Below, in pieces: positions 1-51,287 of a stretch of DNA of 64,000 nt. Numbering within the stretch: position 1 is the first letter of the stretch; every line of letters starts with the position of its first letter. A model generated the notes under the pieces. It was not told the DNA's origin. It saw nothing but the letters and a program-made list of their open reading frames with translations, and searched no databases. Origin of the DNA: an uncultured Alphaproteobacteria bacterium (GTDB lineage: Bacteria; Pseudomonadota; Alphaproteobacteria; Methylaequorales; Methylaequoraceae); the NCBI GenBank assembly GCA_964484795.1, contig CAZAFN010000005.1, forward strand, positions 273 through 64,272, given 5' to 3'. Position numbers and translations under genes: made by a program.

Positions 1-642
1 AATGCTGCATTCATCGCAGATTTTAATAAACATAAGTTTAAAAAAAAATATGATTTAATTTTTTGTTCTCACGTTATAGAACACCAAAGAAATCCAGGAC
101 TCTTTCTTGATAAAATTTTTGATTCTCTCAAAGATGAAGGGGATTTAATTATTTCAGCTCCAAAACATCCTGCGGAAAGATTTGTTGAAGGACATATATT
201 GTCCACTATTTTACCTGTTTTTTTACAGATGTTAATATATGCTGGATTTGATTGTAAAAAAGGTAAAATGATTTCACTTTTGGGTATTGAAAATTCATTT
301 ATTGTAAAAAAGTCTAAAAATTTCTCATTAGAGGAAAGAGATGCGACTGGATATAAATGGACAAAAAATCACCAAGATCGTTCGCCAATAGAATTAAGAG
401 CAGGCTATGAGATTCCAGCTACTACTTTGCATTTAAACAACTGTGAAATATTCAAGATATATGAAAAAGAATATGAAGAAAAAACAAATTCTGCCACTGG
501 ATTAATTTTCGATCCTCCTAAAAATTATAAAAAGAGAAACGTGAGTTTTTTGCTAAATACCTTTAAACAATTTTGTTTATACGATTCAGATAAAAATCTT
601 TTAGCTAATTTCAGTAATGATTATGTGCGTTTTAATATTTAA
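1..642 (+). CDS. Class I SAM-dependent methyltransferase, 5'-truncated by the window edge
   Basis: Frame 1 is open from nt 1 and continuous with the tracked ORF 199..642. The upstream translation reads ...KYDLIFCSHVIEHQRNPGLFLDKIFDSLKDEGDLIISAP, which is the typical post-motif-II/III region of Rossmann-fold methyltransferases. Confidence 0.6.
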   Translation, partial: NAAFIADFNKHKFKKKYDLIFCSHVIEHQRNPGLFLDKIFDSLKDEGDLIISAPKHPAERFVEGHILSTILPVFLQMLIYAGFDCKKGKMISLLGIENSFIVKKSKNFSLEERDATGYKWTKNHQDRSPIELRAGYEIPATTLHLNNCEIFKIYEKEYEEKTNSATGLIFDPPKNYKKRNVSFLLNTFKQFCLYDSDKNLLANFSNDYVRFNI

Positions 643-787
643 AAAAAGTAGTTATTAATCCAGACAACTTAATTAACTTTACTTAAAAACCTAATCCTAC
701 CCACCCCCATTGATTTCTAGGATGATTGCTTTAACATTCATAGGGATAATCTTAGAGATTTTGAAAAAAGAAATTGATACAAATTAA

Positions 788-883
788 AAAACTCAATGTA
801 GTCAAGGGTTCTAGACCTAACGCAACTGATTCAAAATCCGTCGAACTTCGGGACATGTCCATTTGAGTCGGACTAGGGGTGCC
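788..883. repeat. Copy A of a ~96-nt direct repeat; copy B is at 2117..2213, about 85% identical with one 3-nt indel
   Basis: Copy A reads aaactcaatgtagtcaagggttctagacctaacgcaactgattcaaaatccgtcgaacttcgggacatgtccatttgagtcggactaggggtgcc. I aligned the two copies by eye. They share the blocks ACTCAAT...TTGAGT and TAGTC...GACTA, a GATTcaaAATC hairpin, and a uCCG-loop-CGGg hairpin. The only indel falls in the loop of that last hairpin. Confidence 0.8.
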
Positions 884-893
884 ATAAAACTTT

Positions 894-2063
894 TTAGAAT
901 TTAAGATTTAATAATTTTGAAAGTAAATTGTCGTCAGGAATTTTTTTGAGAAAATTAATTATTATATGAATTTTTTCTCTAGAACTTTGAATTTGTTTTA
1001 CAGCCGCAGACAGTACTTCAACAAAATTATTAATACTTAATTTTTTATTTTCCTCGAATAATTGGCATACAAGAAGAAAATTAGTTAATTCTATAAAAAA
1101 TATTACTTCTCTTACAGAATCATAAAATGAATTTTCTGAAATTATAAAATTTTGAATATTTTTAATAAATTCATTTACAAAAAAGTTTTTAAAAATAAAT
1201 TCATTTTCTTTCTTAAAACTGTAAAATTTCGTTCTGTAGATAATGTCAAATTTCTTTTTGAATTCTTTTTCAGACAAATCAAAGTATTTACTTGTAGCTG
1301 CAGACTTTTTACAAATTTCTTGATATCTTGTATTATCTGGGAAATTTGAAAAACAAAGTTTTGCTAAAAAGTTTGTTTGAATTAAAGGAGAATTCTCTTT
1401 AATTTTTTTAACTTCATTTTTTGAGTAAGGTTGAGATGATTTTTTATTTTGAATCATTTTATTATATGAAATTATTATCTGTTTAAGAGCACCATAGAAA
1501 GTAATATTGCTACTTAATAGAAGGAATATGCCTTCAATGTATTTTAAAAATTTCTCTGGTAGATTTTTAGAAATTTCATATGAGTGAATATTATTTGAAT
1601 TAAATACATTAGGTAATTTATTTTTCTTCAATGTATTAATTTTTAAATTTGATTTATTTAAACACAATTTTGCCATTTCAGGACATGACAACTCACCCGC
1701 AATAAAACCAGTTTTATTAAATTTTCTTATTATTCTTGGATAGGTTGAACAACCTACTGATAAATTCTCTTGTCCCAATAAATTGTAAACATTACAAAGC
1801 TTTTTCTCATTTAAAAAGGGACAACAATTGTTATGATTAATTAATCTTCCGTAGGCTATATTTGAATTTAAATTCCTTTTAACTAGATGATTTCGAGAAA
1901 TGGATCTAATTTTTTTGTTAGTGGAATGTTCATATTTTTGATAAGTTTTTTTATCAATTTCTACATTCCAACCTATGCAACAAGAATCAATGCAATCTTC
2001 TCCAACACATTTAAAATCCAGCATATACTCTGGGACAAAAAAACTTGAACTTTCGAGATCCAT
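894..2063 (-). CDS. Cys-rich FliB/YkgJ-family protein (flagellin lysine-N-methylase-like, putative Fe/Zn-chelating domain)
   Basis: The N-terminus carries FKCVGEDCIDSCCIGW, which fits the C-x-G-x2-C-x-D-x-CC-x-GW pattern of the FliB/PF03692-type Cys cluster as I recall it. NCCPFL and GCSTYP motifs lie further in. The ORF is 389 aa and is bracketed by the two direct repeats. Confidence 0.5.
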   Translation of the reverse strand: MDLESSSFFVPEYMLDFKCVGEDCIDSCCIGWNVEIDKKTYQKYEHSTNKKIRSISRNHLVKRNLNSNIAYGRLINHNNCCPFLNEKKLCNVYNLLGQENLSVGCSTYPRIIRKFNKTGFIAGELSCPEMAKLCLNKSNLKINTLKKNKLPNVFNSNNIHSYEISKNLPEKFLKYIEGIFLLLSSNITFYGALKQIIISYNKMIQNKKSSQPYSKNEVKKIKENSPLIQTNFLAKLCFSNFPDNTRYQEICKKSAATSKYFDLSEKEFKKKFDIIYRTKFYSFKKENEFIFKNFFVNEFIKNIQNFIISENSFYDSVREVIFFIELTNFLLVCQLFEENKKLSINNFVEVLSAAVKQIQSSREKIHIIINFLKKIPDDNLLSKLLNLKF

Positions 2064-2116
2064 TTAATATTTTCGCAATATTAATGCCAAAATTTAAATT
2101 AAAAAACACCATTTTA

Positions 2117-2213
2117 GAAACTCAATTTAGTCAAGGGTTTTAGACCAGGCGCAACTGATTCAAAATCCGCCGTTGTCTTTCGGGATATGTCGATTTGAGT
2201 CGGACTAGGGGTA
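2117..2213. repeat. Copy B of the ~96-nt direct repeat, in the same orientation as copy A
   Basis: Copy B reads aaactcaatttagtcaagggttttagaccaggcgcaactgattcaaaatccgccgttgtctttcgggatatgtcgatttgagtcggactaggggtaac. It lies about 50 nt upstream of the minus-strand start of 894..2063 and about 100 nt upstream of the plus-strand start at 2317. Confidence 0.8.
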
Positions 2214-2316
2214 ACACTTTAAAGAAATTTAGAAATTATTTTTTTTGTCACTATTGTCACTGTTAATTACTTAAAATTCATATTAAAATTTATTAAGTAA
2301 TAACTGATTTAATAAT

Positions 2317-4044
2317 ATGTTGGAAAAAGTTAAAAAGTACTATCAATTAAAGAAGTACAATAAGGCAGAGATAATTGCTCGAAGAGAACTTAAAAAATCG
2401 CCAGGAATATTAGAATATTATTATTTACTTGGGCTCATTTACTATTCACTAAATAAATTAAATAATTCTCTTAAATATTTAGATATGTTTCTAGAACATA
2501 ATCCAAATCAAATTGATGCTTTAATTGCCAAGACACATTGCCTTAGGGCAATGAACAAAAATGATGAAGCCATAAACATTCTAAACAAACTATTGAATTT
2601 TGATTTTAAAAAATCTGATATTTTTCTTTTCCTTGGTGAGTGCCACCTTAAAATCTCTCAAGTGGAAAAAGCAAACTCATTTTTCCAAAAAAGTTTAGAA
2701 TTAAATTCTTCTAAGATTAACTTATTAAATGTTTATAAAATTTATAATGAATGTAATTTTCCAGAAAAGGCGTCAAAATTATTAAAAGAATCGTCTTTCT
2801 TTAAAAATGATGACGAAATAACTTTGAAATATTGTAACGATCAAGTAATTCATAATCTCCTTAATTATGAAGAAACTTACACCATTTTATCTAAATTCGT
2901 TCAAGATAAAGTAGTAAGTTCACAAATTTATAATCTTTTAGGTATGTGTTCTTTATTCCTAGGAAAAATTGAAGAAGCAAAAAAAAACTTTTTAGCATCC
3001 GTAGATTTTGATTATACCGATGCAAACCTTTCTTCTTTGTCAACATACATTTCCTCTTCATATTATCAACTTGCTCAAATGAATTATAAATTTGATGAAA
3101 ACACTCTAGACAAAATTAAAAATTTGCTTGGTAAGAATATTAATATCAATAATAAATCTTTATTAGGATATGCATTAAGCAAAATTTATTACAACAATGA
3201 GAACTTTTCAGAAAGTGCGAAGTTTCTTAAAATTTCTAACAAAAACATTTATAAAAACATAATTCTTCCTCGAGGTTGGACATTTGAAGATGAACTAAAG
3301 TTATTTCAAAATTTAAAAAAAATTTATCATTCTATTAAAAAATCAAAAATAATCTCAAATTTTGAAATCACCCCCATATTTATTCTGGGAATGCCTAGGT
3401 CAGGAACAACGTTAGTTGAGAATATTTTAAGTCAATCTGATTGTGTTCAACCGACAGGTGAAAATGGTTTTATTTTAAACCAAATTTCTGAGGAAATTCC
3501 TAACATAAAGAAAAGTAGCATTGAAGATTCCACCTTAATTTCCAAAATAAATAGCGACTTGATTTTTAAATATTTTGATTTTTTATCTCCTAAGAAAAAG
3601 TACTTTACAGATAAAACGCCTTTAAACTTTTTAGCCATAGGCATAATTAAAATACTTATTCCTAACTCCAAAATTATTTATTGCAAAAGAAATATGAATG
3701 ACAATCTCCTATCAATGTTCCAGCAATTTTTTCATTCCTATAGCTTTGATTTTTCGTATGATTTTAAAAGTCTTAAAAAATATTATGACTTACATACTGA
3801 AATTATTAAATTTTGGGACTCTGAAAATATAAGTTTCTTTAAATTAAAATATGAAGATCTAATTACCAATAAACAACAATACATTAACGACTTATGCTCT
3901 TTCATTGGAATAAATTATTCTGATGAAATGTTAGAACCTCATTTGAATAAAAGATATGTCAACACAGCTAGTTCATTTCAGGTAAGACAACCAATTAACT
4001 CTAACTCGGTAAATAAGTGGGACAAATTTAAAGAATTTTTTTGA
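2317..4044 (+). CDS. TPR-repeat protein with a C-terminal sulfotransferase domain
   Basis: The N-terminal ~300 aa are TPR-like (YYLLGLIYY, NPNQIDALIAKTHCL). The C-terminal half carries the PAPS 5'-phosphosulfate-binding motif ILGMPRSGTTLVENIL followed by sulfotransferase-like blocks. Confidence 0.75.
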   Translation: MLEKVKKYYQLKKYNKAEIIARRELKKSPGILEYYYLLGLIYYSLNKLNNSLKYLDMFLEHNPNQIDALIAKTHCLRAMNKNDEAINILNKLLNFDFKKSDIFLFLGECHLKISQVEKANSFFQKSLELNSSKINLLNVYKIYNECNFPEKASKLLKESSFFKNDDEITLKYCNDQVIHNLLNYEETYTILSKFVQDKVVSSQIYNLLGMCSLFLGKIEEAKKNFLASVDFDYTDANLSSLSTYISSSYYQLAQMNYKFDENTLDKIKNLLGKNININNKSLLGYALSKIYYNNENFSESAKFLKISNKNIYKNIILPRGWTFEDELKLFQNLKKIYHSIKKSKIISNFEITPIFILGMPRSGTTLVENILSQSDCVQPTGENGFILNQISEEIPNIKKSSIEDSTLISKINSDLIFKYFDFLSPKKKYFTDKTPLNFLAIGIIKILIPNSKIIYCKRNMNDNLLSMFQQFFHSYSFDFSYDFKSLKKYYDLHTEIIKFWDSENISFFKLKYEDLITNKQQYINDLCSFIGINYSDEMLEPHLNKRYVNTASSFQVRQPINSNSVNKWDKFKEFF

Positions 4045-4126
4045 CAACAATCTAATTGGCAATTCATAATTTTATTCTAAGATCGCAAAAGTACAGACCA
4101 GAAAATCAAAGTTACAAGCAAATTTA

Positions 4127-4978
4127 TTATTTTTTCAATAACGTTGAATTTTTCTTTCTAAGTGCGTCTATCAATGGATCTATTTCTCCATTTTTTATGA
4201 ATCCACTAAATTCTGATTTCCTAGTTGCCACCTCACTTATTGAACCATTTAGCAGTACATCAAAAACCTTCCACTTTCCGTCTTTAACAGTTAACAGGTA
4301 ATCGATTGAAACTTTCTCATTTTCTTTAAGAACTAAATTCGTTTTAACCTTCATATAGTTTTTTCCAAATTTTTTACTTTCTCCGCTTTCAAAGTCTGGT
4401 TGTTTGATCTTAATAAATCTTTTGATGTAACTTTTCGCAATGAACTCCTCAAAAACGAGTAACATTTCTTTTTGTTTTTCTATTCTGATGTTTTCCCAAA
4501 CATTTCCAATGATCATTGTAGTCATTTTTTCAACGTCTAAGGTACTTCTAATTAACTGCACAATTTCTTTGTAATTGCTAAAGTTTTGCAGACTTATTTT
4601 TTTCAACCCGGCATGTAGTTCCAAGATTGTATTAATTGCATCTTCCTTAATGACTTGAGCCTTTGGATTCAAATCACTAGGTTTCTTTGCAACCGGTTTG
4701 ATGGTAGGTAAATCCAGTTTAGGTTCTATTTTGGAAATTTCTTTAGAAGCAGGATCTACAATTTCTGGTTTTACATAATTTGTTGATTTGTCTGCATGAA
4801 TTATCGAATCAGTGTGTTCTTCAACCGAGGAGGTTTCTTCTGGGCCTTCATTCTCCTCTTTGTTAATTACGTTGTAGCAAGTTTTAATAGCAACTAACAT
4901 CAGTATGAATAAAAAGACTATTAGATAATAATTTCTTTTTTTAAATTGTGAAAAAAAACTAAATACTAATTTCTTCAT
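4127..4978 (-). CDS. MlaC/Ttg2D-family phospholipid-binding periplasmic protein with a ~120-aa Pro/Lys-rich N-terminal extension and a membrane anchor
   Basis: The C-terminal ~170 aa (LQNFSNYKEIVQLIRSTLDVEKMTTMIIGNVWENI...SIDYLLTVKDGKWKVFDVLLNGSISEVATRKSEF) matches the MlaC toluene-tolerance family signature. There is an N-terminal TM helix and a PKLDLPTIKPVAKKPSDLNPK linker. Confidence 0.65.
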   Translation of the reverse strand: MKKLVFSFFSQFKKRNYYLIVFLFILMLVAIKTCYNVINKEENEGPEETSSVEEHTDSIIHADKSTNYVKPEIVDPASKEISKIEPKLDLPTIKPVAKKPSDLNPKAQVIKEDAINTILELHAGLKKISLQNFSNYKEIVQLIRSTLDVEKMTTMIIGNVWENIRIEKQKEMLLVFEEFIAKSYIKRFIKIKQPDFESGESKKFGKNYMKVKTNLVLKENEKVSIDYLLTVKDGKWKVFDVLLNGSISEVATRKSEFSGFIKNGEIDPLIDALRKKNSTLLKK

Positions 4979-5001
4979 GATTGATCTTTATAATTCGAAA
5001 T

Positions 5002-6540
5002 TCATTCTTCATAAATTACTAGCAAATTAATTGAAAGTAAGATTAAAAAATATGCCACTGGCGTTAGATATCTGAAGATTTTGTCTAAACTTTCCACTAG
5101 CCTTCTCTTTTTAGAAATCAATGCACCTACAGCAACTGTCTGAATTACGGGAATACCTGAAAAAAAATATGACACTAGAATGGTTATATCCATTAATGTC
5201 AAATAAGATAATCGAGGCAAGTCTTTATCAACAACAAAATTATAAGCTATCAAAGACAGCAAACAAACTATACTAACTGTTATTCGACTCTCAATTTCCC
5301 TTGGGTTGATCCAAAACGTTGACCAGGAAATTATTAAAATCAGTAGAATCGGAAGAAAAATTTTTGTTAGATAATAAGTTGATTCTCTCTTAATCGCTAT
5401 AGCTACATATTTATCAAAAATATATACGTAGTTTATTAATTCTACATTTCTTTGATCCATCGAAGTAACTCTTACATATTTCCATTCTGGATTAGGTGGA
5501 AGGTCCTTAACACTTTCAAAAAACCTTTTATATGCAAAATCAGGAAAAATTATATCTTCAAAAACTAATCCTTCTTCTCCTGGAATGGGTTCAAATCCAG
5601 ATTCAAGAATAAATTCTATATACTGCTCATCAAAAGGAAACTTTTTGAATCTGAAATCATTCTTTAAAATTCCTCTTGAACTTTGAATGTTTTGAATGAA
5701 AGAAGAACCAAATATTTTTTCAAATTTATTTTCGTCTTCATAACTTCCAGGTTGAGAATAATCGAGTCTAACATCATTAGAATAAACCTCTGTAGAAGAA
5801 AAATTTCTAATTCCTACCCGTGGGTGGTATAGATTGTTTTCTTTAAAAAAAGAAAGAGGTATTTCACAATAATAATTGTAATTTGTGGCATCTTCATAAT
5901 TTATTTCTTTATATTCAGTCCAAACTTCATGCATTATTTTTGTAATTCTGTCATCGATCCAATTTTGGTGCATGTTAATTGCAAGGTCTACCTGGGATTC
6001 TCTTGATTTGATTTGATTAATTGTCTTAACTATGATTTCAACATTAACCGGATTATCGGAGTACCTTTTTTTTTTTAAATATATGTGTTCATCCCCTATG
6101 ACTAATTTTACGTCTTCCTTCTCTGATAATTCATAAAATATTTCTTCATCTGACATTTCAGCAGTATGTTTTGAATTTATGGACTTTATTGGTTCTAGCA
6201 ATACATCAGCACTTATGTCTTTTTCAAGTAATTCTTCGTAGAGATCTGGATGTATTTTTCCTAAAATTGCTTCATTGTTTTCTGAACGTTCAAGAGATGA
6301 AACTTCAAACTCAAGGTCATCAATATCATCAAATTTTCTTTCATCTTTTACTTTGAAAGGTGTGTAATATTCTAATTCGATTCCATGATATTCCCAAAAA
6401 CTGTCATTAGGACTGTCTAAGTCAGAATTCTGTTTCAATTTTTCTTCAAGAATTTCACATTCATCAAAACCATCATAAGCTAGAAGATTAAGCTTAAAAA
6501 AAACAATTAGAAGAAGTAATAAACTTTTTTTAATCATCAA
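5002..6540 (-). CDS. Prokaryotic pentameric ligand-gated ion channel (Cys-loop receptor family, GLIC/ELIC-like) with an extra ~150-aa N-terminal periplasmic domain
   Basis: After a signal peptide comes the start of the extracellular domain, PVNVEIIVKTINQIKSRESQVDLAINMHQNWIDDRI. The Cys-less Cys-loop KKFPFDEQYIEFILES aligns with GLIC RRYPFDSQTLHIYLIVRS. M1 reads YYLTKIFLPILLILIISWSTFW, against GLIC YFSYIPNIILPMLFILFISWTAFW. M2 (RITVSIVCLLSLIAYNFVVDKDLP), M3 and a C-terminal M4 are also present. Confidence 0.85.
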   Translation of the reverse strand: MMIKKSLLLLLIVFFKLNLLAYDGFDECEILEEKLKQNSDLDSPNDSFWEYHGIELEYYTPFKVKDERKFDDIDDLEFEVSSLERSENNEAILGKIHPDLYEELLEKDISADVLLEPIKSINSKHTAEMSDEEIFYELSEKEDVKLVIGDEHIYLKKKRYSDNPVNVEIIVKTINQIKSRESQVDLAINMHQNWIDDRITKIMHEVWTEYKEINYEDATNYNYYCEIPLSFFKENNLYHPRVGIRNFSSTEVYSNDVRLDYSQPGSYEDENKFEKIFGSSFIQNIQSSRGILKNDFRFKKFPFDEQYIEFILESGFEPIPGEEGLVFEDIIFPDFAYKRFFESVKDLPPNPEWKYVRVTSMDQRNVELINYVYIFDKYVAIAIKRESTYYLTKIFLPILLILIISWSTFWINPREIESRITVSIVCLLSLIAYNFVVDKDLPRLSYLTLMDITILVSYFFSGIPVIQTVAVGALISKKRRLVESLDKIFRYLTPVAYFLILLSINLLVIYEE

Positions 6541-7195
6541 CTTCTGATTGTAAAAGTTTATATTTCTTTAATAAATTCATAGAAAATATTATCAAATAAG
6601 CTAGAAGGATTAAATATAAAATACTCTGTATAGATACTAAAAAATTATAGAGCGAGTGAAATGCGATTGGGATTAGTAAGCTTAAAAACAAACTCTTTTT
6701 ATTGTTGTTAAATTTATAATCACTAAAATAAAAACCCATAATAACCCCACAAAAACAATGCAAAGGTATTGCTGAAAATGATCTTAATGCAGCCGTTATA
6801 TAGGAATCATAAACATTCTGTGTATTAAAAAAAACATACTCAAAATTTTCCAATGTAGCAAATCCAAGTGATAGGCATACTCCGTAGACTATTCCATCCA
6901 TCGGCTCATCGTAGTGTTTGTGATTATTTATATAAAATATAAAAAATAAAAACTTAAGAGTTTCTTCTGTGAAACCTGCCAAATATGCCTGCTCTTCAAA
7001 ATCTTGAATAACAAAAATATTTAAGTATCCAGCTGGAAAGCAAATCAAGATTCCCAAAAGAAAAATCTTTAAGATTGATGAAGCTGGTTCTCTAAACTTG
7101 TCTGATTTAACAAAAAAAATTAATAGGAAACATGACGGTAAAATGGTCATTAGAAGCAAATCAAAGTTTTCAGTCATAAATTTAATGTTTAACAA
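6530..7195 (-). CDS. PrsW-family intramembrane glutamic-type protease (M82-like)
   Basis: The protein is polytopic. It carries the PrsW motifs EETLK (EExxK), DGIVYGVCLSLGFATLENFEY and AIPLHCFCGVIMG (HxxxxxxG). Confidence 0.6.
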   Translation of the reverse strand: MLNIKFMTENFDLLLMTILPSCFLLIFFVKSDKFREPASSILKIFLLGILICFPAGYLNIFVIQDFEEQAYLAGFTEETLKFLFFIFYINNHKHYDEPMDGIVYGVCLSLGFATLENFEYVFFNTQNVYDSYITAALRSFSAIPLHCFCGVIMGFYFSDYKFNNNKKSLFLSLLIPIAFHSLYNFLVSIQSILYLILLAYLIIFSMNLLKKYKLLQSEVDD

Positions 7196-7224
7196 AAAGG
7201 TTATACAAAACTATACTATATCCT

Positions 7225-7812
7225 GTGAAATTTATTAATTCCATTAAGTATAGTTTTCAAAATGCATTTTCTTTGGATGGAAGAGCAAACAGATATGAAC
7301 TTTGGGTTTTTTACTTATTTTGTTTTAGTTTAGCATTTATAGGTGTCCTTCTTGATATCATCTTATTTGGGGAGGAGGAATTTGGACCTTTTTATGTCAT
7401 AGCTTTAGTTTTGACCATAATACCATCAATATGTCTCCAGGTAAGAAGAATTCATGACATCGGTTTTCACGGAGCAGCTTGGTTTCTTTTATTTATTCCT
7501 TTTGTAAACATTGTAGCTTTTTTCATATTCAATTTAAAGCAAGGCGATAAGTCAAACAACAAATTTGGCCCCCCACCGGTAGACCTTTATAAGAGTAATT
7601 CTATTGCACTTGAAAAATCGATTGGGAAAATGTCAAGCAAAGTTGGTAAAAATGTAACCCAGATTTATAAAGACCTAAAAGGAAAAAAACTGAACCCAGA
7701 AGATATAGAGAATGAACTTAAAAAAGTAGAAGAAATGTTCAAAAGAAATGTTATCTCTAAAAATGAAAGAGAAGATTTAAGAAAGAAAATCCTTGGGATT
7801 TTGAAAAAATAG
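7225..7812 (+). CDS. DUF805-family inner membrane protein
   Basis: It has the motifs GRANRYELWVFYLF...RRIHDIGFHGAAWFLLFIPFVNIVAFFIF...NKFGPPP, which are diagnostic of DUF805 (YhaH-like). Confidence 0.7.
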   Translation: MKFINSIKYSFQNAFSLDGRANRYELWVFYLFCFSLAFIGVLLDIILFGEEEFGPFYVIALVLTIIPSICLQVRRIHDIGFHGAAWFLLFIPFVNIVAFFIFNLKQGDKSNNKFGPPPVDLYKSNSIALEKSIGKMSSKVGKNVTQIYKDLKGKKLNPEDIENELKKVEEMFKRNVISKNEREDLRKKILGILKK

Positions 7813-7857
7813 ATTTTGGCAACTCATTAAAACAGCTAATTTCAAATTACCTTATAA

Positions 7858-7887
7858 TTGACAATTTTAATTTTAAATATCTATAAT
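7858..7887 (+). promoter_or_regulatory. Sigma70-type promoter with perfect consensus boxes, predicted to give a leaderless transcript of 7893..8525
   Basis: TTGACA is at 7858-7863, followed by an 18-nt spacer and TATAAT at 7882-7887. The ATG at 7893 is only 5 nt after the -10 box, so the TSS is expected at or within about 1 nt of the A of the ATG. There is no SD. Confidence 0.5.
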
Positions 7888-7892
7888 TTTGT

Positions 7893-8525
7893 ATGTCTAA
7901 TTGGGAAGTTGTTGATGCACGAAAATGGCAAGACAAATACAAGTCTGACGATTACAAACCTGAATTAATCTTTAAGGATTCTAATTCCAAGGAAAGCGCT
8001 TTGTTTTCTCTTAGTTTCTTCTTAATGATTATGGCATCTGAAATATTATTCAATCAACCATTTAGTAAAAAGATTGGAATGGTCCACAACCATTTTTACA
8101 AAAAATTGTTCAAAAAAAAATATGAAAAAATTGAAAGAGTTGAAACCAATTCATTTGCATTCAGCTTGTTTTTAATTTTGCACAAACTTTTAAAAGAAGA
8201 AAATACTCTTACTGATCGCATTAAAGACATTATCATCTATGCGACTTGTCATTGGTCCAACATACTGAAGTTGAATGAAAGTGAGCATCAGAAAAAATTG
8301 GCGATTTTATTTGCAATGTGGAATGAGAACAAGGATTTGGTTTTATCTTATAGGAATGATTCAATCATTGATCTAATTTTTTCTTTGTATAAAAGTTTTG
8401 AAGTAGGAATAAGCAATAAGAAGATAATTGAGAAAAATATTGCCGCACTTGATTTCTCAGTTAGCAAAGCTAACAAAGAATTTAGATTTGATGTGTTGAA
8501 TGAATTTAGGAAGAAAAGGTTTTAA
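7893..8525 (+). CDS. Hypothetical protein
   Basis: 210-aa ORF with no motif I recognise. Reasonable coding look; it follows the consensus promoter. Confidence 0.5.
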   Translation: MSNWEVVDARKWQDKYKSDDYKPELIFKDSNSKESALFSLSFFLMIMASEILFNQPFSKKIGMVHNHFYKKLFKKKYEKIERVETNSFAFSLFLILHKLLKEENTLTDRIKDIIIYATCHWSNILKLNESEHQKKLAILFAMWNENKDLVLSYRNDSIIDLIFSLYKSFEVGISNKKIIEKNIAALDFSVSKANKEFRFDVLNEFRKKRF

Positions 8526-8553
8526 AACATTTTTTTTTCTAAAATCATAGAAA

Positions 8554-9480
8554 CTAATTGACTTTTTTCCATTCCATTTTATTTGAGAAATTTATTTGAT
8601 TGTGCAAGAATTCTGCTTGACAGGTAGTGTCAATTCCATCGACAAAAGAAAACACGATACCGTTTGAAAAACTTTTAGCAACTGCTTTAACTTTTTCATT
8701 TGAATCATATACCAATGCCGAATCAAATGGATATTTTTTAATTTCATATCCATTTTTGTATTTGCCTGCTATCTGTTCAATATTGTTTTTCTCACTTTCT
8801 CGGTTAAAAAATAATTGAGCTATAGTTCCGTGGTTTTTCAATGACAATGTTCCAACAAAATATGGCGTTACATTCTCTAATTTGCTTGAATTAACTATTT
8901 CCATGTATTCTTCTACATCTCTTAATAAAAGTACAAACCTGTAATTAGTTGCTCCTAGATTATCAAGACATTCTTTTAAATTATTAATGTAACTAGTGCT
9001 TATTCCGAATCTTTTTGAAAAATCTTCTTTAGATGGTGCAAATTTCACAAGATTCTCCTGAGAGTTTGAAATTACAAACGTCTTTTGGATAAAATCATCC
9101 CTTATAAAATCTAAAAAACGTTTCCATAAATATGCATACTTATCTTTGAAATTTTGGTAGGTAGATTGATCAATCAATAATTCTTCGCCACTCTTCTCAA
9201 AATCATGAAAAAGCCATATTCCATTAATGCAAACAGCGTCTTTTTGTGAAATAGATTTCTTTAATAGACTCAATTCATTAACAGATGGTTGAAAAGCCTT
9301 TCCATCGTCATTTTTAAGTGACCTTAGTACAAATTCTTTCGTCACAACATTCCAATCATATGGCATGGAAACATCATTGGTATTTTCAAGAATCTCAATG
9401 GTAAACTTAGACTGGCATGAAAAACCAAGCGAAATGTAATTGTGTGGCAAATTATTCTTTATCATATAAATATATACCAA
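8554..9480 (-). CDS. DUF1796-like protein (putative papain-like fold), hypothetical
   Basis: The N-terminus HNYISLGFSCQSKFTIE...SMPYDWNVV resembles the ISLGxxC...PFDW opening of DUF1796 proteins, which are often found in surface-glycan loci. Similarity judged from memory only. Confidence 0.4.
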   Translation of the reverse strand: MVYIYMIKNNLPHNYISLGFSCQSKFTIEILENTNDVSMPYDWNVVTKEFVLRSLKNDDGKAFQPSVNELSLLKKSISQKDAVCINGIWLFHDFEKSGEELLIDQSTYQNFKDKYAYLWKRFLDFIRDDFIQKTFVISNSQENLVKFAPSKEDFSKRFGISTSYINNLKECLDNLGATNYRFVLLLRDVEEYMEIVNSSKLENVTPYFVGTLSLKNHGTIAQLFFNRESEKNNIEQIAGKYKNGYEIKKYPFDSALVYDSNEKVKAVAKSFSNGIVFSFVDGIDTTCQAEFLHNQINFSNKMEWKKVN

Positions 9481-9660
9481 AAGTATGATTTAAATATTCT
9501 TATTATACTTTTAAGTGCAATATTCGTGACAAATGTAGAGTTTTTAAAGTCTAATGCCTTACAACAATTTTTTTTATTAATCGAATGTTAGGCATACCAT
9601 TTATTTTATTTTTTGATAGTATTAACTCTCGTAATTAATTAACAGTGGAGGGTTGATTTA

Positions 9661-9792
9661 ATGAATGAAGATAATGAATGCGGATGTGGCCGATCTCCTA
9701 CAGGAAAGTGCATTGGATGGCATCTTTTGAGTGAGGAAGAATATAAAACAAAATTGGCTAATTACGAAAACAAAAAAGATTCAGAAAAATAG
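9661..9792 (+). CDS. Small Cys-containing protein, 43 aa (MNEDNECGCGRSPTGKCIGWHLLSEEEYKTKLANYENKKDSEK)
   Basis: The ATG is preceded by a strong SD (agtGGAGGgttgatttaATG), which is unusual in this genome. It lies in a 460-bp spacer and is below the ORF-track size cutoff. Confidence 0.35.
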   Translation: MNEDNECGCGRSPTGKCIGWHLLSEEEYKTKLANYENKKDSEK

Positions 9793-9944
9793 TTTTGAAT
9801 TTTATTGTTTAAACATCATTTAAAAAAACAAGAAAAATTACCCCAAAGACGATCAAAAACTGAATGATATTAAAAATCATTATCATTGACAAATCTAATT
9901 TAATAACTACATTTTTTATATAGTTAATTACAAGGAAAGTGTTT

Positions 9945-10370
9945 ATGAAAAGTTTTTTTTATTGTTTGTTTGTTTTATTCTTTGTGACCAGTGTAAACTC
10001 CGCTGACTTACAGATTGAAATGTTGAATAAGAGGGATGATGGTGCTCGAATGGTGTATAGTCAAGAAATAGCTAAAATTGATGCTGGGCAGACCATTGAA
10101 TGGGTCGCCAAAGACAAGGGGCATAATGTTGAAATGATAGTTGGTCCTGATGGTGCTGACTTGCCAAAAAAAAGTAAGTTAAGCAAAAATTTCTCCATGA
10201 AATTTGATGCTCCCGGAATTTATTTGTACAAGTGTACCCCTCATGTAGGACTAGGAATGATAGGTATTGTAGTCGTTGGAGGAGATAGTTCAAATAAAGA
10301 ATCCGTTGCCAAAGCAAAGTTATCTGGAAAATCAAAAAAAAAGAGAAACAAACTACTAGAAGGAATTTAG
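9945..10370 (+). CDS. Pseudoazurin / plastocyanin-like type-1 copper protein (cupredoxin)
   Basis: Signal peptide, then GHNVE...YLYKCTPHVGLGMIGIVVVG with the Cys-Thr-Pro-His...Met copper ligands. The true start is probably ATG 9945 with an AAGGAAAG SD; the track's 9939 is a GTG. Confidence 0.8.
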   Translation: MKSFFYCLFVLFFVTSVNSADLQIEMLNKRDDGARMVYSQEIAKIDAGQTIEWVAKDKGHNVEMIVGPDGADLPKKSKLSKNFSMKFDAPGIYLYKCTPHVGLGMIGIVVVGGDSSNKESVAKAKLSGKSKKKRNKLLEGI

Positions 10371-10397
10371 TTTTTAAAAATTAAATTCTGCTTTTTT

Positions 10398-11846
10398 CTA
10401 ATACGGCAACTTGCTGGCACCCATTAGGAATTTATCTACGCAATGTGCAACCTGTCTTCCCTCTCTAATGGCCCAAACTACTAGAGATTGTCCTCTTCTC
10501 ATATCACCAGAGACAAAGACTTTGCTTAGATTTGTTTTATAGTCTGAGTCATTAGCATGAACATTACCCCTATCATCCAGTACCAATCCTGAATTTTCAA
10601 TCAACTTATCTTTTATTGGATGCAAAAAACCCATGGCAAGCAACACTAGGTCTGCCTGAAGTGAAATTTCTGAATCTTTTCCGCGCATCTCACTCATTTC
10701 CATCTTACCATCACCGTTTTCATCCCACTGAATTTTCTTAAGTTTTAATCCCTTAACTTTCGTCCCATCACCTTCAAATGACTTTGTGGCCACACTCCAG
10801 TTTCTCTCAACCCCTTCTTCATGAGAAGATGAAGTTCTTAACTTTAATGGCCAATTAGGCCATGTCAGAAGCTTGTTTTCCTTGACTGGAGGTTTTTCAA
10901 GTATCTCTAACTGCGTAACTGATCTGGCTCCTTGTCTATTGGATGTTCCAATGCAATCAGAACCAGTATCACCTCCGCCTATTACCACAACATTCTTGTT
11001 TTTTGCAGAAAGTCTTTCATCAGCAGGTAATTTGTCACCCTCACATATTTTATTCTGACGAGTTAGGAAATCCATAGCAAAATGAACACCTTCTAGTTCT
11101 CTGCCGGGAATTTTTAAGTCTCTAGGTTCTTCAGAACCACACGCAAGAACAATGGCATCAAAATCTTTTTCTAATTCTTGGATTGATAGATTTTCTCCAA
11201 CTCGAACATTACATTCAAAAACTACTCCCTCTTTCTCCATTTGAATGATTCTTTTATCAATATAATGTTTTTCCATCTTGAAATTAGGAATCCCATATCT
11301 TAACAAACCTCCAATCCTATCATTTTTTTCAAAAACGACGACCTTATGTCCGGCTCTAGCAAGTTGTTGGGAACAAGCCAAGCCTGCCGGACCAGAACCA
11401 ACAACAGCTATTTTCTTATTAGTCTTTTCTATATTGGACTCAGGAACAACCCATCCTTCTTTATAACCTTTGTCTATAATAGATTTTTCAATGCTTTTTA
11501 TATTAACTGGACTATCTTCTATGTTTAACGTACAGGCAGCTTCACAAGGAGCCGGACATATTCGACCAGTAAATTCTGGGAAATTATTAGTGGAATGCAA
11601 AACCTCTAGAGCAATCTTCCAGTCTTTTTCATAGACCAATCCATTCCAGTCAGGAATAATGTTATTTATCGGACATGAGTTGTGACAATAGGGTATTCCA
11701 CAATCCATACATCTTGCCGCTTGCTGGTTTAGAGCATCATCAGACAAAGGTAGGACAAACTCATCAAAGTTGTTTATCCTTTTTGTAGGGGAGATTAAAT
11801 TGTTCTCAACTCTATCATATTCCAAAAAACCGGTTACTTTTGCCAT
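10398..11846 (-). CDS. gltD: Glutamate synthase (NADPH) small subunit
   Basis: N-terminal 4Fe-4S Cys cluster ([14 protein letters not shown]), FAD/NAD Rossmann motif [28 protein letters not shown], 482 aa, immediately downstream of gltB. Confidence 0.9.
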
Positions 11847-14800
11847 AATTTTTCATCCTCTGAACTAGTCTCTGAATGTTTTGACTTTTGTAATGCATTC
11901 TTAAAATCAATTGGCAGAACTTTTACAAACTTTTTTATATTCTCGTCAAACTTATCCAGAATCAATTTTGCCTTAAATGAATTTGTATAATTAACATGTC
12001 TATTTAACATTTCCTTGATTCTTAATTCATCATTTTCCAAAAGTGAGTATTTGTCAAAAATTTTCTCAGGATGATTAATTATTGATTTTTTAATTTTCAA
12101 AACCTCAACCATAGAAAAATTGCACTTTGATTTAAATTCTTCTTGCTCATCATATACATAGGCAATTCCACCACTCATTCCTGCCCCAAAATTCACACCT
12201 GTTTTGCCTAAGACCATTACAATGCCACCGGTCATATATTCACAACAATGATCACCTGTTCCTTCAACTATTGCAACGGCACCGGAATTTCTAACGGCAA
12301 ATCTTTCTCCTGCAATACCAGAAAAATAACATTCTCCTGATATTGCCCCATAAAGAACTGTGTTGCCTAAAATAATATTTTGGTGAGCTTCATATCCTGT
12401 CTTTTTAAAAGGTTTTATGGTTATTCTTCCACCTGACAAACCCTTGCCTACATAATCATTTGCCTCTCCTAAAAGATTAATGGTAATACCCCTTGATAAG
12501 AAAGTACCTAAACTCTGTCCTGCCGTTCCCTCAAGATTAATAACTATAGAATCCTCATTTAATCCCTTGAAACCGTATTTTTTTGCAATCTCTCCTGACA
12601 AAATAGCCCCAAAACTTCTATCAGTATTTCTTATTTTATGATTAATTTGTATGCTTTTTATCTTACCACCTATCACGCCTTGAGCCTCTTTAATGATTTT
12701 ATGGTCAATCGCTTTATGAACGTCATGCTCTTGGAATGATGAATTGAAATTTTCTTCTTGAGAATCAGTAGGAGGCTTCCAAAGGATTTTGGACAAGTCT
12801 ATATCTTTAGCTTTCCAATGGTCTATTACATCTTGCTTACACAATAGATCTGACTTTCCTATTAAATTTTTAAATTTTGCAATTCCTAATTCAGCCATAA
12901 TTTCTCTAACCTCTTCCGCCACAAGGAAAAAATAGTTTATGACATTCTCTGGTGTTCCTTTAAATTTTTTTCTTAATACTTTATTCTGAGTAGCTATTCC
13001 AACTGGACATGTGTTTAAATGACATTTTCTCATCATTATACAGCCTACCGAAACCAAAGGTGCGGTTGAGAAGCCAAATTCATCTGCACCAAGAATTGCA
13101 CCCACAATAACATCCCTCCCTGTTTTCAGACCACCATCAACTTGCAGTGAAATCCTATTCCTTAGTTTGTTGAGAACTAAAGTTTGGTGCGTTTCTGCCA
13201 GGCCTAATTCCCAAGGACTTCCAGCATTTTTTATTGATGTTAAAGGCGATGCTCCCGTTCCTCCGTCATAGCCTGAAATCGTTATGTGATCGGCTTTGCA
13301 TTTAGTTACACCCGCAGCAACAACTCCAACTCCAAACTCAGAAACAAGTTTTACACTTATTCTAGCATTACTGTTAACACTCTTTAAATCAAATATTAAC
13401 TGGGCAAGATCTTCAATAGAATAGATGTCATGATGTGGTGGGGGTGAAATCAGACCTACGCCAGGCGTTGAGTGCCTGACTTCTGCAATTTTTTCATCTA
13501 CCTTATGCCCTGGAAGTTGTCCACCTTCACCAGGTTTTGCTCCTTGACATATCTTAATTTGAATATCATTTGCATTTACTAGGTACTCTGTCGTAACTCC
13601 AAACCTACCTGATGCCACTTGTTTAATGGCACTCCTCATTGAATCACCATTTTTTAATGGTAAAAACCTCTCGCGTTCCTCACCACCTTCTCCTGTATTG
13701 GACTTTCCACCGATTCTATTCATAGCTAGTGCTAGAGTAGTATGAGCTTCTTTTGAAATGGATCCAAACGACATTGCACCTGTTGAAAATCTTTTAACTA
13801 TTTCCTGTGCACTTTCCACTTTTTCTAAGGGTATGCTCTGTTTTGAATCTTTAAATTTGAACAAACTTCTAATGGTAAATAATGATTTATTGTGGTCATT
13901 AATTTCTTTTGAGAATTCCTGAAATGATTCTTTAGAGTTAATCCTGACTGCTTTTTGAAGATTTGTTATTGTTGATGGTGACCATGCATGTTTTTCTCCG
14001 CTTATTCTAAAAGCATATTCGCCTCCCTCATCTAAATTTATTTCCCTTAAATTACTACTAATGTTCTTTCTATATCTTTCTACCGTTTCTTGTTGAATCT
14101 GTCCTAAATTCATCCCTCCAATTAGTGATGCTGTACCACAAAAATATCTGTCTATCACTTCTTCAGAAATGCCTATGGCGTCAAATATTTGTGCGCCACA
14201 GTAAGATTTAAGTGTAGAAATTCCCATTTTAGACATAATCTTGAGAATCGCCTTGCCTGATGCCTTTATAAAATTCTCCTGTGCTTTCTTATAACCTGCT
14301 TCTCCTACCAAATTACTGATTGTATTAAAAACTAAGTAAGGATTTATTGCCTCTACACCATATCCAGCTAGAACCGCAAAATGATGTAATTCTCTAGCCT
14401 CTCCCGTTTCAACCACTAGACTTATTTTCATTCTAAGTCCCTCCTTGATCAAAAAATGATGGACCGCTGATGCAGCAAGAAGCGTTGGGATAGGAACATA
14501 ATCATTGGAGATGTTTTTATCAGACAAAATCAGAATGTTTTTACCATTAATAATTTGTGATTTGGCTTCATTGCAAATTTTTTCTATTGCACTTTCTAGT
14601 TCATTCGAATCATCAGAATTTTTGAACAAAACATCTATGACTGCAGATTTTAATTTACCATTTGTCGATTTATCAATATTGATTATTGAGTTGATATCTT
14701 CATTTGTAAGTATTGGTTGATCAAGTTCTAACCTAAAACAATTGTTATTTTCTGGGTGGGAAAAAATATTAGGTTTAGGGCCCAGCGAAATATTTAAAGA

Positions 14801-17261: not shown

Positions 17262-17867
17262 TTAATCTTCTTCTTTGACTAGTCTAGTAAGCCCCAACTT
17301 GTATTCTATTGCATTGCAGAGCATCTGACCAATCATAATATGCATCTCTTGAATCCTTGAAGTATTCGTAGCTGGAACAGAAATTATTTCATCTGAATGT
17401 TTTTTTAAAGCTTCTATATTCCTACCAGTAAAAGCTATGCATTTTAATCCCATTTTTTTTGCTTCTTTAAAACCATTGATGATGTTTCTACTTTTTCCAG
17501 ATGTGGAAATGCCAATTGCAACGTCTCCTGAACAACCCAATGCTTGAACTTGTCTCGAAAAAATAAATTCGAATCCAAAATCATTCCCTATTGCTGTTAA
17601 TGCAGATGTATCCGTAGCTAGTGAAATTGCAGCTATCGGGTTTCTGTTTTTAGAAAATCGTACTGTAAGTTCTGTAGATAAGTGTTGAGCATCTGCGGCA
17701 CTACCGCCATTCCCGAATATTAATAATTTTCCACTTTTTTTTAAGCATTCAATGCAAATTTTAACAGAATTTACAAATGGCTTACATAGTATGTCATTAG
17801 ATCTGTTTGCTACCCTAATGTGCTCTTCTATTTGCAGATTAAAAAATTTTTCTAAGTTGTCATCCAT
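17262..17867 (-). CDS. gmhA: SIS-domain phosphoheptose isomerase (GmhA/DiaA family)
   Basis: LLIFGNGGSAADAQHLSTELTVRF plus ...GISTSGKSRNII. The tracked start at 17894 overlaps tRNA-Arg by 12 nt. The internal Met (M10, ATG at 17867) has GAGGA 7 nt upstream and puts ~50 aa before GNGGS, as in E. coli GmhA. Confidence 0.7.
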   Translation of the reverse strand: MDDNLEKFFNLQIEEHIRVANRSNDILCKPFVNSVKICIECLKKSGKLLIFGNGGSAADAQHLSTELTVRFSKNRNPIAAISLATDTSALTAIGNDFGFEFIFSRQVQALGCSGDVAIGISTSGKSRNIINGFKEAKKMGLKCIAFTGRNIEALKKHSDEIISVPATNTSRIQEMHIMIGQMLCNAIEYKLGLTRLVKEED

Positions 17868-17882
17868 TCTCATTTCCTCAAA

Positions 17883-17958
17883 TGGCGATCTCATCTGGAC
17901 TCGAACCAGAAACTAATCCTTAGGAGGGATTTGTTATATCCAGTTTAACTATGAGACC
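17883..17958 (-). tRNA. tRNA-Arg (anticodon CCU), 76 nt with encoded CCA
   Basis: The minus-strand sequence is GGTCTCA-TA-GTTA-AACTGGATA-TAAC-A-AATCC-CTCCTAA-GGATT-AGTT-TCTGG-TTCGAGT-CCAGA-TGAGATC-G-CCA. I folded it by hand into a cloverleaf with a 7-bp acceptor stem (one G-U pair), a 4-bp D stem, a 5-bp anticodon stem with U33 and the CCU anticodon, and a T-loop TTCGAGT. Confidence 0.9.
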
Positions 17959-17970
17959 GTCATTTATCCA

Positions 17971-18480
17971 TTATCTTAAAGGTATTTGGTACTTTAAAAC
18001 CAAAGTCTCTGAACCAGGGTTTCTGTAACCACTGTCAGCATTAGAAATATGAAAAATACCAACACCTAACCTAGTATTATTCTTAAATCTGTGAAACATA
18101 TCAATTCCAATGTAAAATTCTAGAGGGTTTCCTGCCTTAATTTCATGTCCATCCTTATAATATCCACAAGCAACACTTGGGGTTACAACAAAATTTTTTT
18201 TTTTGCCATAATATCCATCTATTCCAAACCCACCATAGGCATAATAAGTGTTTTCACTAGTTCCAAGGAAACCTGCAAATGGCTTAATCACATTAAACAA
18301 TTTCTCTCCGCTATGGATTTCTAAATTAATCATCTGAGATTGATCATTATGTGGTGGAGTACCATCCTCCATAAAGTTAAATTGACCCACGCCTACTGAA
18401 AGTCTGCGAGAATCTTTTGCAAAAGAAATGCTTGAACTCAACATTACTAATAAAAAAAAAATATTTCTTATAAAACTCAT
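17971..18480 (-). CDS. PagL-like outer-membrane lipid A deacylase-family beta-barrel protein (paralog 1)
   Basis: Signal peptide. The C-terminus GVGIFHISNADSGYRNPGSETLVLKYQIP carries the His/Ser (HxSN) catalytic-type block of PagL-family 8-strand barrels. It sits in tandem with a 45%-like paralog. Confidence 0.5.
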   Translation of the reverse strand: MSFIRNIFFLLVMLSSSISFAKDSRRLSVGVGQFNFMEDGTPPHNDQSQMINLEIHSGEKLFNVIKPFAGFLGTSENTYYAYGGFGIDGYYGKKKNFVVTPSVACGYYKDGHEIKAGNPLEFYIGIDMFHRFKNNTRLGVGIFHISNADSGYRNPGSETLVLKYQIPLR

Positions 18481-18491
18481 AACATTTAAAA

Positions 18492-19007
18492 CTAAAATGG
18501 AATTTGATATTTAAAGATAACTTGCTCTGACCCAGGGTTTCTATATCCTAACCCAGCATTTGAAATGTGAAAGACACCCACCCCAACTCTAACATTATTC
18601 CTAAACCTATACATAAAGTCACCTCCACTTCGAAATTCTATTGTATTCCCCAATCTAATTTGATCACCATCTTCATAAGCACCTACCGCTAAACTAGGAG
18701 TTAACACAAAACATTTACATCTAGCAAAGTAAAGATCCGTTGAAAGACCAAAATATGCATAGTATGCAGACTCATCTGTCCCAAGAAATCCAACCAGGGG
18801 TCTAATAAAGCCTAAAGCTTTTTTTCCTGAAAACAACTCAACATTATAAGCTATAGAGTCCTGGTTGTAACCTTGACTTCCGTGCTTCATAAAATTATAT
18901 TTGCCTGCTCCTAAAGACAATCTACTCTTGTTATCTTTTGCCAACAATGCAAATGTTGGAAATAGAAATATTATCAAGAAAAATTTAAGCTTTAATAAAA
19001 TATTCAT
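18492..19007 (-). CDS. PagL-like outer-membrane protein (paralog 2)
   Basis: The C-terminus GVGVFHISNAGLGYRNPGSEQVIFKYQIPF is clearly homologous to 17971..18480. Confidence 0.5.
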   Translation of the reverse strand: MNILLKLKFFLIIFLFPTFALLAKDNKSRLSLGAGKYNFMKHGSQGYNQDSIAYNVELFSGKKALGFIRPLVGFLGTDESAYYAYFGLSTDLYFARCKCFVLTPSLAVGAYEDGDQIRLGNTIEFRSGGDFMYRFRNNVRVGVGVFHISNAGLGYRNPGSEQVIFKYQIPF

Positions 19008-19051
19008 AAACCCCTATTATATTAAAAAAAATAAAAAATTAATATTTAATA

Positions 19052-47711: not shown

Positions 47712-47713
47712 GA

Positions 47714-49710: not shown

Positions 49711-49901
49711 TTTTTTAATAAAACATAATATTAGAAATTAAAAAAAAAAAGAAAAAAAAATCAATATATTGTTTGACTTATATAAAAAATCACTATATAT
49801 TGATACTGGGCTAGTATGATTATAACAAAACTTTGTGCAATAACATTCTCCTCAATTTTTTTGTTACTACTAGTTTCAAGTCTATTTTAATTTCCTCCAA
49901 T

Positions 49902-49930: not shown

Positions 49931-49974
49931 TTAAATCTAAATTGTAGTCTTATTTTGCTGTTATATTGGGAAGT

Positions 49975-51285: not shown

Positions 51286-51287
51286 AA

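Follow-up and report, generated by a model that had tools for sequence, protein, structure and literature searches.

Background

The genomic islands of SAR11 bacteria have been catalogued recently: a 2025 study lists 61 of them, mostly tiny, seven of which are linked to tRNA genes and almost none of which carry integrases. In these islands, partial tRNA repeats mark the insertion of cassettes and there are no mobile elements, while the flexible genome has a lower guanine-plus-cytosine (GC) content and longer spacers than the core (PMC11796062). A 2026 preprint describes a universal SAR11 hypervariable region of surface-polysaccharide genes, anchored at tRNA genes, and proposes phage integration followed by decay (10.64898/2026.04.03.716430). 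In this paper, we analyse the left end of a stretch of 64,000 nucleotides, hereafter the window, from an uncultured alphaproteobacterium (contig CAZAFN010000005.1). The region under study covers positions 1 to 10397, from the left end of the window to gltD, which starts at position 10398 on the minus strand and is followed by gltB. Islands of the same type are described in the literature, and the region thus belongs to a known class. It is probably the gltD-proximal shoulder of a flexible interval that runs from a tRNA-Leu(CAA) gene to gltD, and that was built in two ways: single cassettes at the tRNA end, and lineage-specific modules between conserved genes in the rest. An earlier note on the same DNA, the original prediction, took the left 9.5 kb for a hypervariable island of surface-related genes; its observations turn out to be largely right, and its interpretation half right.

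The published islands and the region have in common small, often single-gene insertions, the link to a tRNA, longer spacers, and the lack of integrases and mobile elements (PMC11796062). They differ in the tRNA, here tRNA-Leu(CAA); in the lineage, whose GltD is 73-79% identical to that of any GTDB species representative; and in the scars, which here retain about 70-89% identity to the 3' part of the tRNA, against more than 90% in the published islands. Two features are newly resolved with respect to that study: conserved families of element arms, and a probable crossover near the anticodon loop.

A second relative is the hypervariable region 2 (HVR2), or O-chain island, of SAR11 (Wilhelm 2007; 2026 preprint). 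Both loci comprise a polysaccharide cluster bounded by tRNA, breaks in the assemblies, and methyltransferases and sulfotransferases at the edge. However, the anchors in Pelagibacter are tRNA-Phe/His and tRNA-Arg instead of tRNA-Leu, and the window covers a shoulder that lies outside the glycan cluster; the two loci are likened by description. The third relative is the family of tRNA-targeting islands and of integrase-less, att-flanked cis-mobilizable elements (CIMEs), with which the region shares an intact tRNA end, direct repeats of its 3' part, tandem accretion, and arms with paired short repeats. The elements described here, known from sequence alone, differ in that no integrase accompanies them in about 100 loci, and in that their cassettes are 1-4.6 kb long, with one to four genes.

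Results and discussion

Two tRNA-Leu scars and their cassettes

Protein families were called by scans with Pfam and NCBIfam profiles, tRNAs by ARAGORN, RNA families by Rfam and defence systems by PADLOC. The metagenome and genome loci compared with the window bear L numbers (L042, L048, etc.). The tRNA end of the region has the following features, in window coordinates:

-303..-217, 217 nt left of the window edge: intact tRNA-Leu(CAA), called by ARAGORN in near-identical contigs
1..642, plus strand: S-adenosylmethionine (SAM) methyltransferase, class I, C-terminal 213 of 273 aa; Pfam Methyltransf_23, 1.5e-7
779..884, plus strand: E1, attR-like scar; non-tRNA arm at 779-819, then 820-884 corresponding to tRNA-Leu positions 23-87, 57 of 65 identical
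894..2063, minus strand: FliB-family protein, 389 aa, putative [4Fe-4S]/SAM lysine N-methylase; NCBIfam NF038110, 2e-48
2108..2216, plus strand: E2, attR-like scar, older; arm at 2108-2146, then 2147-2216 corresponding to tRNA-Leu positions 21-87

ARAGORN calls the tRNA at 33-119 of L042 and at 9877-9963 of L048. The methyltransferase gene, cut by the window edge, is complete at 157-978 of L042 and starts 179 nt left of the window. Further left, beyond the tRNA, L048 shows a glycan-biosynthesis cluster with genes for an epimerase, a methyltransferase, WbqC, DegT, an NTP-transferase, a radical SAM protein, GFO_IDH and RmlC.

E1 and E2 are direct repeats of each other: they bracket the FliB-like gene, share a non-tRNA extension of 30-40 nt, and are GC-rich within a genome of 28% GC. 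Their repeat cores, of 19 nt and 18 nt, each occur twice in the window, where the chance expectation is 0.02 and 0.05. Compared with tRNA-Leu over positions 34-87, E1 has 6 mismatches, and E2 has 16 and an insertion of 3 nt.

Such elements could also be cis-regulatory, or encode a small structured, tRNA-like RNA that controls the methyltransferase, FliB-like and sulfotransferase genes. Their GC-richness would fit this, as would their positions, on either side of the FliB-like gene, which is on the opposite strand, and, for E2, about 100 nt upstream of the start of the sulfotransferase gene. We hold this to be very improbable. Neither E1 and E2 nor the GC-rich spacers contain a tRNA or tmRNA according to ARAGORN, or an Rfam family in gathering or E-value mode; the folding z-scores of the two elements, -0.89 and +0.76, are no better than those of shuffles, and the same is true of the folding of 643-893. 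Moreover, both elements match the neighbouring genuine tRNA-Leu colinearly over its 3' two-thirds, with substitutions that break the anticodon stem, and the same structure flanks unrelated cargo elsewhere.

The comparison with integron arrays leads to a different distinction. Integrons also have single-gene cassettes, a recurring site of about 100 nt and one orientation of that site, but their sites are attC hairpins whereas the sites here derive from a tRNA, there is no IntI here, and the cassette genes face either way. An integron cassette array was consequently rejected: the complementary boxes of E1 and E2 are not nested, the sites are tRNA-derived, and the motif scan found no integrase.

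The two proteins of this end are what the original prediction said they were, a SAM methyltransferase and a FliB-like cysteine protein. The latter scores 165.8 bits against NF038110, whose cut-off is 85, over model positions 1-371 of 373; it has a precomputed match to PF27117 (FliB_C), and an exact CX4CX3CC motif, C19-x4-C24-x3-C28C29. In Salmonella FliB, this motif binds a [4Fe-4S] cluster (PMC8598068). No flagellar gene was found among the roughly 40 window proteins scanned, and the neighbours of the FliB-like gene are the tRNA scars; the enzyme may methylate lysines of a non-flagellar surface protein. Homologues that are 31-60% identical adjoin tRNA-Leu or its fragments in L128, L116, L094 and L085. 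FliB-like genes are thus a recurrent cargo of tRNA-Leu cassettes. In L128, the homologue (60% identical) has an intact tRNA-Leu on one side and, downstream, a fragment with an arm of family 3 on the other (3784 and 5168); this fragment is scored as a tRNA by ARAGORN, yet its 5' half is not tRNA-like.

The same arms in other marine contigs

A scan of metagenomes with the T-arm and acceptor end of tRNA-Leu yielded 80 loci, with 40 intact tRNA-Leu genes, 15 truncated at the end of a contig, and 39 internal fragments. An intact copy is typically found 0.65-4.6 kb upstream of a fragment, and the divergence of the fragments from tRNA-Leu begins just 5' of the anticodon loop. A break at this point is the layout expected for an attR site after a crossover in the anticodon loop, the mechanism that we infer.

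The sequences that adjoin the fragments form four or more arm families, and every family has a pair of short direct repeats. The arm of E1 and E2 is family 1, with pattern ACATTGAYACC-N6-ATTGAYACC...GTCAAGGGTTTTAGACC, and is also found in L071, L072, L089, L090, L099, L101, L104, L114 and L127. Among the cargo of cassettes in the other loci are a restriction-modification system, FkbM methyltransferases and FliB-like genes; that of L127 consists of two DNA methyltransferases and a third gene. The variant of the T-loop that is specific to E1 and E2 had no match in a metagenome scan of its own. In positions 34-87, most of the other fragments have 0-1 mismatches to the tRNA: the window scars are much more decayed, which argues that the window cassettes are old.

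Thus, of the features by which tRNA islands are recognized, the intact tRNA with a direct repeat of its 3' part is present, as is the same arm with different cargo; an integrase is not. Integrase families are absent from the Pfam, NCBIfam and PADLOC scans of the region, and PADLOC finds no defence system there, with a single weak match of the methyltransferase to mad2.

One locus has another arrangement. At 778-796 of L077, a decayed family-1 fragment of tRNA-Leu is found beside counterparts of window genes 17262-20491, and gltBD does not separate the two, a layout that differs from that of the window.

Variability between species

We now turn to the genes between E2 and gltD:

2317..4044, plus strand: fusion of tetratricopeptide repeats (TPRs) and a sulfotransferase, 575 aa; Sulfotransfer_3 3e-31, Sulfotransfer_1 1e-19, several TPR families
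4127..4978, minus strand: MlaC/HpnM-family lipid-binding protein, 283 aa; PF05494 1.2e-28; N-terminal anchor, low-complexity linker
5002..6537, minus strand: pentameric ligand-gated ion channel (pLGIC), 511 aa, with an extra N-terminal domain of about 160 aa; Neur_chan_memb 2e-9, LGIC_1 4.5e-19
6530..7177, minus strand: PrsW-family intramembrane protease, 215 aa; Pfam PrsW-protease 1e-29; its stop overlaps the start of the pLGIC
7225..7812, plus strand: DUF805 membrane protein, 195 aa, divergent from PrsW; Pfam DUF805 1e-20
7893..8525, plus strand: 210-aa all-helical protein; no Pfam match; 100 clusters, lineage-restricted
8554..9465, minus strand: 303-aa protein, distant relative of DUF1796 (putative papain-like Cys peptidase); relatives match PF08795
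9661..9792, plus strand: Cys-rich open reading frame (ORF), 43 aa (MNEDNECGCGRSPTGKCIGWH...); GGAGG ribosome-binding site; inside a 458-bp "spacer"
9945..10370, plus strand: pseudoazurin; TIGR02375 1e-28; next to gltD

The gene list of the original prediction omitted about 3.6 kb of this: the pLGIC, PrsW, DUF805 and 210-aa genes.

These genes were compared with gltD-anchored loci from 25 related species, with 73-79% GltD identity. The species of the window is not in this set, whose loci are labeled Pelagibacteraceae, Rickettsiales or Alphaproteobacteria and come from metagenome-assembled or single-amplified genomes (MAGs, SAGs), with no isolate among the matches. The gltB side is fully syntenic across the 25 loci. 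Downstream of gltD, two genes recur at variable spacing: the 210-aa gene, in 24 of the 25 loci, and the MlaC-like gene, in 20 of them, with neighbours that vary from one relative to another. The FliB-like, TPR-sulfotransferase, pLGIC, PrsW, DUF805 and DUF1796-like genes are all six singletons, found in the window only; in particular, the TPR-sulfotransferase is absent from 24 of 24 related gltD loci. In other species, the slot between the MlaC-like and 210-aa genes is occupied by glycan cassettes, with DegT and GT11 or ManC and Gmd genes, or by VTT/DedA genes; sulfotransferases also occur in corresponding slots of relatives. The gene content of the region is thus accessory between species, with the MlaC-like and 210-aa genes as conserved anchors.

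The closest relative, L037, carries a methyltransferase homologue that is 66% identical and adjoins a sulfotransferase and an arylsulfotransferase. Genes for a TesA-like GDSL lipase, an ABC ATPase and an FtsX-type permease, which are usual backbone genes in relatives (assigned by inspection), are missing from the whole window. Pseudoazurin is present among the relatives in L037 and L074 only. In a sister lineage, L190, at about 85% nucleotide identity, the DUF805 gene, the 210-aa gene, the DUF1796-like gene, the small ORF and gltD are present, and pseudoazurin is not: window position 9913 joins position 10357 (L190 2615-2635), a clean difference of a single gene. The variable stretch reaches gltD at 10398, and does not stop at 9480, where the original prediction had placed the end of the island.

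Proximity to a tRNA and att-like repeats may suggest that the whole 10 kb is a single degraded prophage, or another integrative element, inserted at tRNA-Leu; the 2026 preprint indeed models phage insertion followed by decay. This is most doubtful for the present region. Since the MlaC-like and 210-aa genes keep their synteny with gltD across 20 to 24 of the 25 species, they belong to the chromosomal backbone; scans found no phage, integrase or conjugation genes, and there is no att scar to the right of position 2216.

Outside the region, at window 17883-17958, a tRNA-Arg(CCT) keeps its position across nearly all of the related loci; according to the preprint, the SAR11 hypervariable region has a tRNA-Arg among its anchors (10.64898/2026.04.03.716430).

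Fixity within the population

The original prediction went further than accessory content: it took the region for the most likely place of strain-specific novelty, on the grounds of its long spacers, of its frequent changes of strand, and of products of the cell envelope. A strain-level hypervariable island would differ in content among co-occurring strains, and would be under-recruited by metagenomic reads.

The layout does have the look of such an island. Spacers have a median length of 80 bp in the region and of 1 bp elsewhere in the window (Mann-Whitney p=0.0035), and the strand flips in 6 of 9 cases, against 14 of 50 (Fisher p=0.033), so that the repeated flips were rightly noted. The range of 80-460 bp that had been given for the spacers does not hold: 4 of the 9 measure between -11 and 29 bp, and the one of 458 bp contains the 43-aa ORF. 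The composition of the region, proposed as a check, does not set it apart, with a GC content of 27.9% against 30.6%, the 15th lowest of 110 windows of equal size, and no distinct GC content at third codon positions (GC3). The stretch with the lowest GC in the window lies elsewhere, at 46.5-57 kb. At 46527-54557, envelope-lipid genes are found: cyclopropane fatty acid (CFA) synthase, DUF1365, amine oxidase, PAP2, ArnT-like PMT_2 and GT2, with a spacer of 478 bp at 49711-50188.

Two more observations speak for hypervariability besides this layout and the lineage-specific content: pseudoazurin comes and goes between lineages that are about 85% identical, and four independent assemblies break at or inside tRNA-Leu, 32-156 bp from the start of the methyltransferase or from the tRNA. 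A fifth locus, L045, breaks inside E1.

The comparison of close strains gives another picture. Eight assemblies from different samples, at 98.5-99.9% nucleotide identity to the window, have the same full gene order. The abundance of genes was judged by the size of clusters at 90% identity, a crude stand-in for metagenomic read recruitment: these sizes are 4-49 for genes of the region, with median 8, and 2-13 for ten flanking core genes, with median 6. Identical order in eight assemblies, together with core-like abundance, implies a region that is flexible from species to species, yet fixed in its own population. The contigs, furthermore, break at the tRNA, left of the window, rather than within 1-9480; true hypervariability most likely resides in the glycan cluster on the far side of the tRNA. 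A strain-level hypervariable island is thus unlikely here. The original prediction had itself named uniform recruitment and conserved synteny of related strains as evidence against it, and both are observed, the former at the level of cluster sizes, a crude proxy. What stands of it is the content, unlike across 25 species, next to a tRNA-Leu and a glycan cluster; gene order in close assemblies is conserved, and novelty among strains is allelic and resides in the pLGIC ectodomain.

Probable assembly of the interval

Taken together, these observations are best accounted for by a shoulder that was assembled in two ways. At the tRNA end (1-2216), the methyltransferase and FliB-like cassettes would have been added singly, by site-specific recombination in the region of the anticodon loop of tRNA-Leu. 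Each insertion would have left a scar of type attR, composed of an element arm and the 3' two-thirds of the tRNA; the recombinase would be encoded outside the region, and the decay of the scars would mean that the insertions are old and immobilised. We infer both the action of this recombinase and the order of the insertions. In the right part, the MlaC-like and 210-aa anchors would be interleaved with lineage-specific modules in recurrent slots, and the modules dropped into these slots would be the TPR-sulfotransferase, the DUF805/PrsW-pLGIC genes, the DUF1796-like gene and pseudoazurin.

Several points weigh against this account. The scars E1 and E2 have derived substitutions in common (CAACTG, ATTTGAG), and could be a single scar that was duplicated locally instead of two integrations. 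The methyltransferase homologue of L037 lies beside MlaC without a tRNA scar, so that the methyltransferase is not obligatorily the cargo of a cassette. A scan for tyrosine-recombinase motifs, limited to motifs, is empty for the window and for the SAR11-like loci, and matched solely one unrelated Bryobacteraceae locus among all loci. Searches of viral contigs with the att arm and tRNA core returned either nothing or six chance matches without extended similarity. As to fixity, the breaks of contigs at tRNA-Leu may stem from repeats, or from the conservation of the tRNA across species, instead of heterogeneity among strains, and cluster sizes are a rough substitute for read recruitment.

Genes between the scars and gltD

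The fusion of a sulfotransferase with TPRs was correctly recognized by the original prediction. Its enzyme and the methyltransferase may decorate the glycan produced by the neighbouring cluster. The description of all products as related to envelope or surface does not fit about one third of the coding sequence, the PrsW-pLGIC-DUF805 genes, which form a signalling or membrane module.

The MlaC-like protein had been called an orphan. The domain is indeed present, and no mlaFEDB partners were found among the window proteins scanned, the gene adjoining those of the pLGIC and the sulfotransferase; as an anchor in 20 of 25 loci, however, it is not accessory. Its best NCBIfam model is HpnM, with 99 bits, below the cut-off of that model; the model of E. 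coli-type MlaC gives 6e-6. The AlphaFold2 (AF2) model of the other anchor, the 210-aa protein, has a pLDDT of 84.5 and no fold match in the PDB.

The call of DUF1796 has indirect support, through relatives only. The 303-aa protein itself has no match to PF08795, even at E<=10, while 20 of 36 aligned relatives match it at E<=0.1, with 1.7e-5 as the best value. The protein is rare: it forms 3 clusters among 5.8 billion proteins, and an exhaustive HMMER search yields 65 representatives. In this family, C17 is nearly invariant and H87 is invariant; a profile search of the PDB with the family came back empty. As to the 43-aa ORF, it is called in every near-identical contig, and is kept in L190.

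A polymorphic channel in an operon with PrsW

Within the population, the pLGIC gene is the only hot spot of polymorphism of the region. When the window is compared with contigs that are otherwise identical, this gene holds 21 of the 23 differences for L047, and 32 of the 34 for L042 (p=4e-20). The ratio of nonsynonymous to synonymous polymorphism (pN/pS) is 3.3, 1.9 and 0.84 in three comparisons, and 0.08-0.46 in the neighbouring genes; the excess over this background is significant (p about 1e-6), that over neutrality is not (p=0.06-0.8). Almost all of the changes are nonsynonymous. Variable sites are evenly distributed over the three codon positions (22, 25 and 17); per 100 nt, the N-terminal domain has 6.0 of them, the ectodomain 4.7, and the nearly invariant transmembrane domain 0.8.

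Each allele is a mosaic of haplotype blocks, located at codons 56-83, 320-362 and 370-385. An alignment with sTeLIC and the AF2 model place the last two on beta8, loop F, beta9, loop C and beta10. A diversity-generating retroelement was considered and rejected as the source of this variability: the variable patches are not repeated in 1-12000, no reverse transcriptase was found, and the substitutions hit all bases and segregate as haplotype blocks. Two independent assemblies (L042, around 6400, and L050; window 6064) carry a frameshifted allele, in which a deletion of 1 bp yields ORFs of 323 aa and 168 aa. The deletion marks either a genuine pseudogene allele or an error of sequencing common to both assemblies. 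For the variability of the gene as a whole, simple pseudogenisation would sit poorly with the conserved transmembrane domain.

The AF2 model of the channel has a pLDDT of 81, and Foldseek aligns it to GABA-A beta3 and sTeLIC with an E-value of 7.5e-18 and a TM-score of about 0.75. The sequence matches in the PDB are sTeLIC and DeCLIC, and FPFD is conserved at residues 300-303. The protein is thus predicted to have the traits of the class: an ectodomain that is a beta-sandwich, four transmembrane helices and the FPFD loop motif. It shares its fold, the four helices and FPFD with DeCLIC (6v4a) and sTeLIC (6fl9), and has an extra N-terminal periplasmic domain, as does DeCLIC.

The association with PrsW extends to other genomes. 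In 7 of 7 contexts of pLGIC homologues with the N-terminal domain (24-33% identical; L177-L185, L188-L189), PrsW lies directly upstream, with overlapping stop and start; DUF805 is at most 2 kb away in three contexts, including L182 and L184. A short pLGIC of 391 aa comes without PrsW. One of the contexts is on another contig of SAG AG-895-B20, whose own gltD locus lacks the module. The PrsW protein of the window matches NF033739 with 2e-37 and 128.9 bits, below the cut-off of 225 bits. It belongs to the same family as the PrsW site-1 protease of the RsiW pathway of B. subtilis, with EExxK and HxxxN visible, and differs from it in its operon, coupled to a pLGIC. No anti-sigma factor gene lies near PrsW-pLGIC, and no mention of PrsW together with a pLGIC was found in the searchable literature.

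We tentatively propose, as an idea that could about as easily fail as hold, that the DUF805/PrsW-pLGIC genes (5002-7812) form an undescribed but conserved envelope-sensing module of marine oligotrophs, with PrsW translationally coupled to the channel and its extra periplasmic domain, and with the ligand-binding loops F and C and the N-terminal domain kept polymorphic by diversifying selection and patchwise recombination in a population that is near-clonal in other respects. PrsW and the pLGIC may then act as a periplasmic sensor.

Conclusions

The "island" look of the region splits into three components: a glycan cluster outside the left edge of the window, most likely the hypervariable part; the old scars of tRNA-Leu cassettes; and modules specific to the lineage, set between conserved anchors. 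The flexible appearance of a raw sequence does not imply variability at the level of strains. The att arm families of tRNA-Leu(CAA) offer a handle for finding the recombinase behind the traffic of integrase-less cassettes in SAR11-like genomes, and the PrsW-pLGIC operon gives bacterial pentameric channels a physiological context that can be tested.

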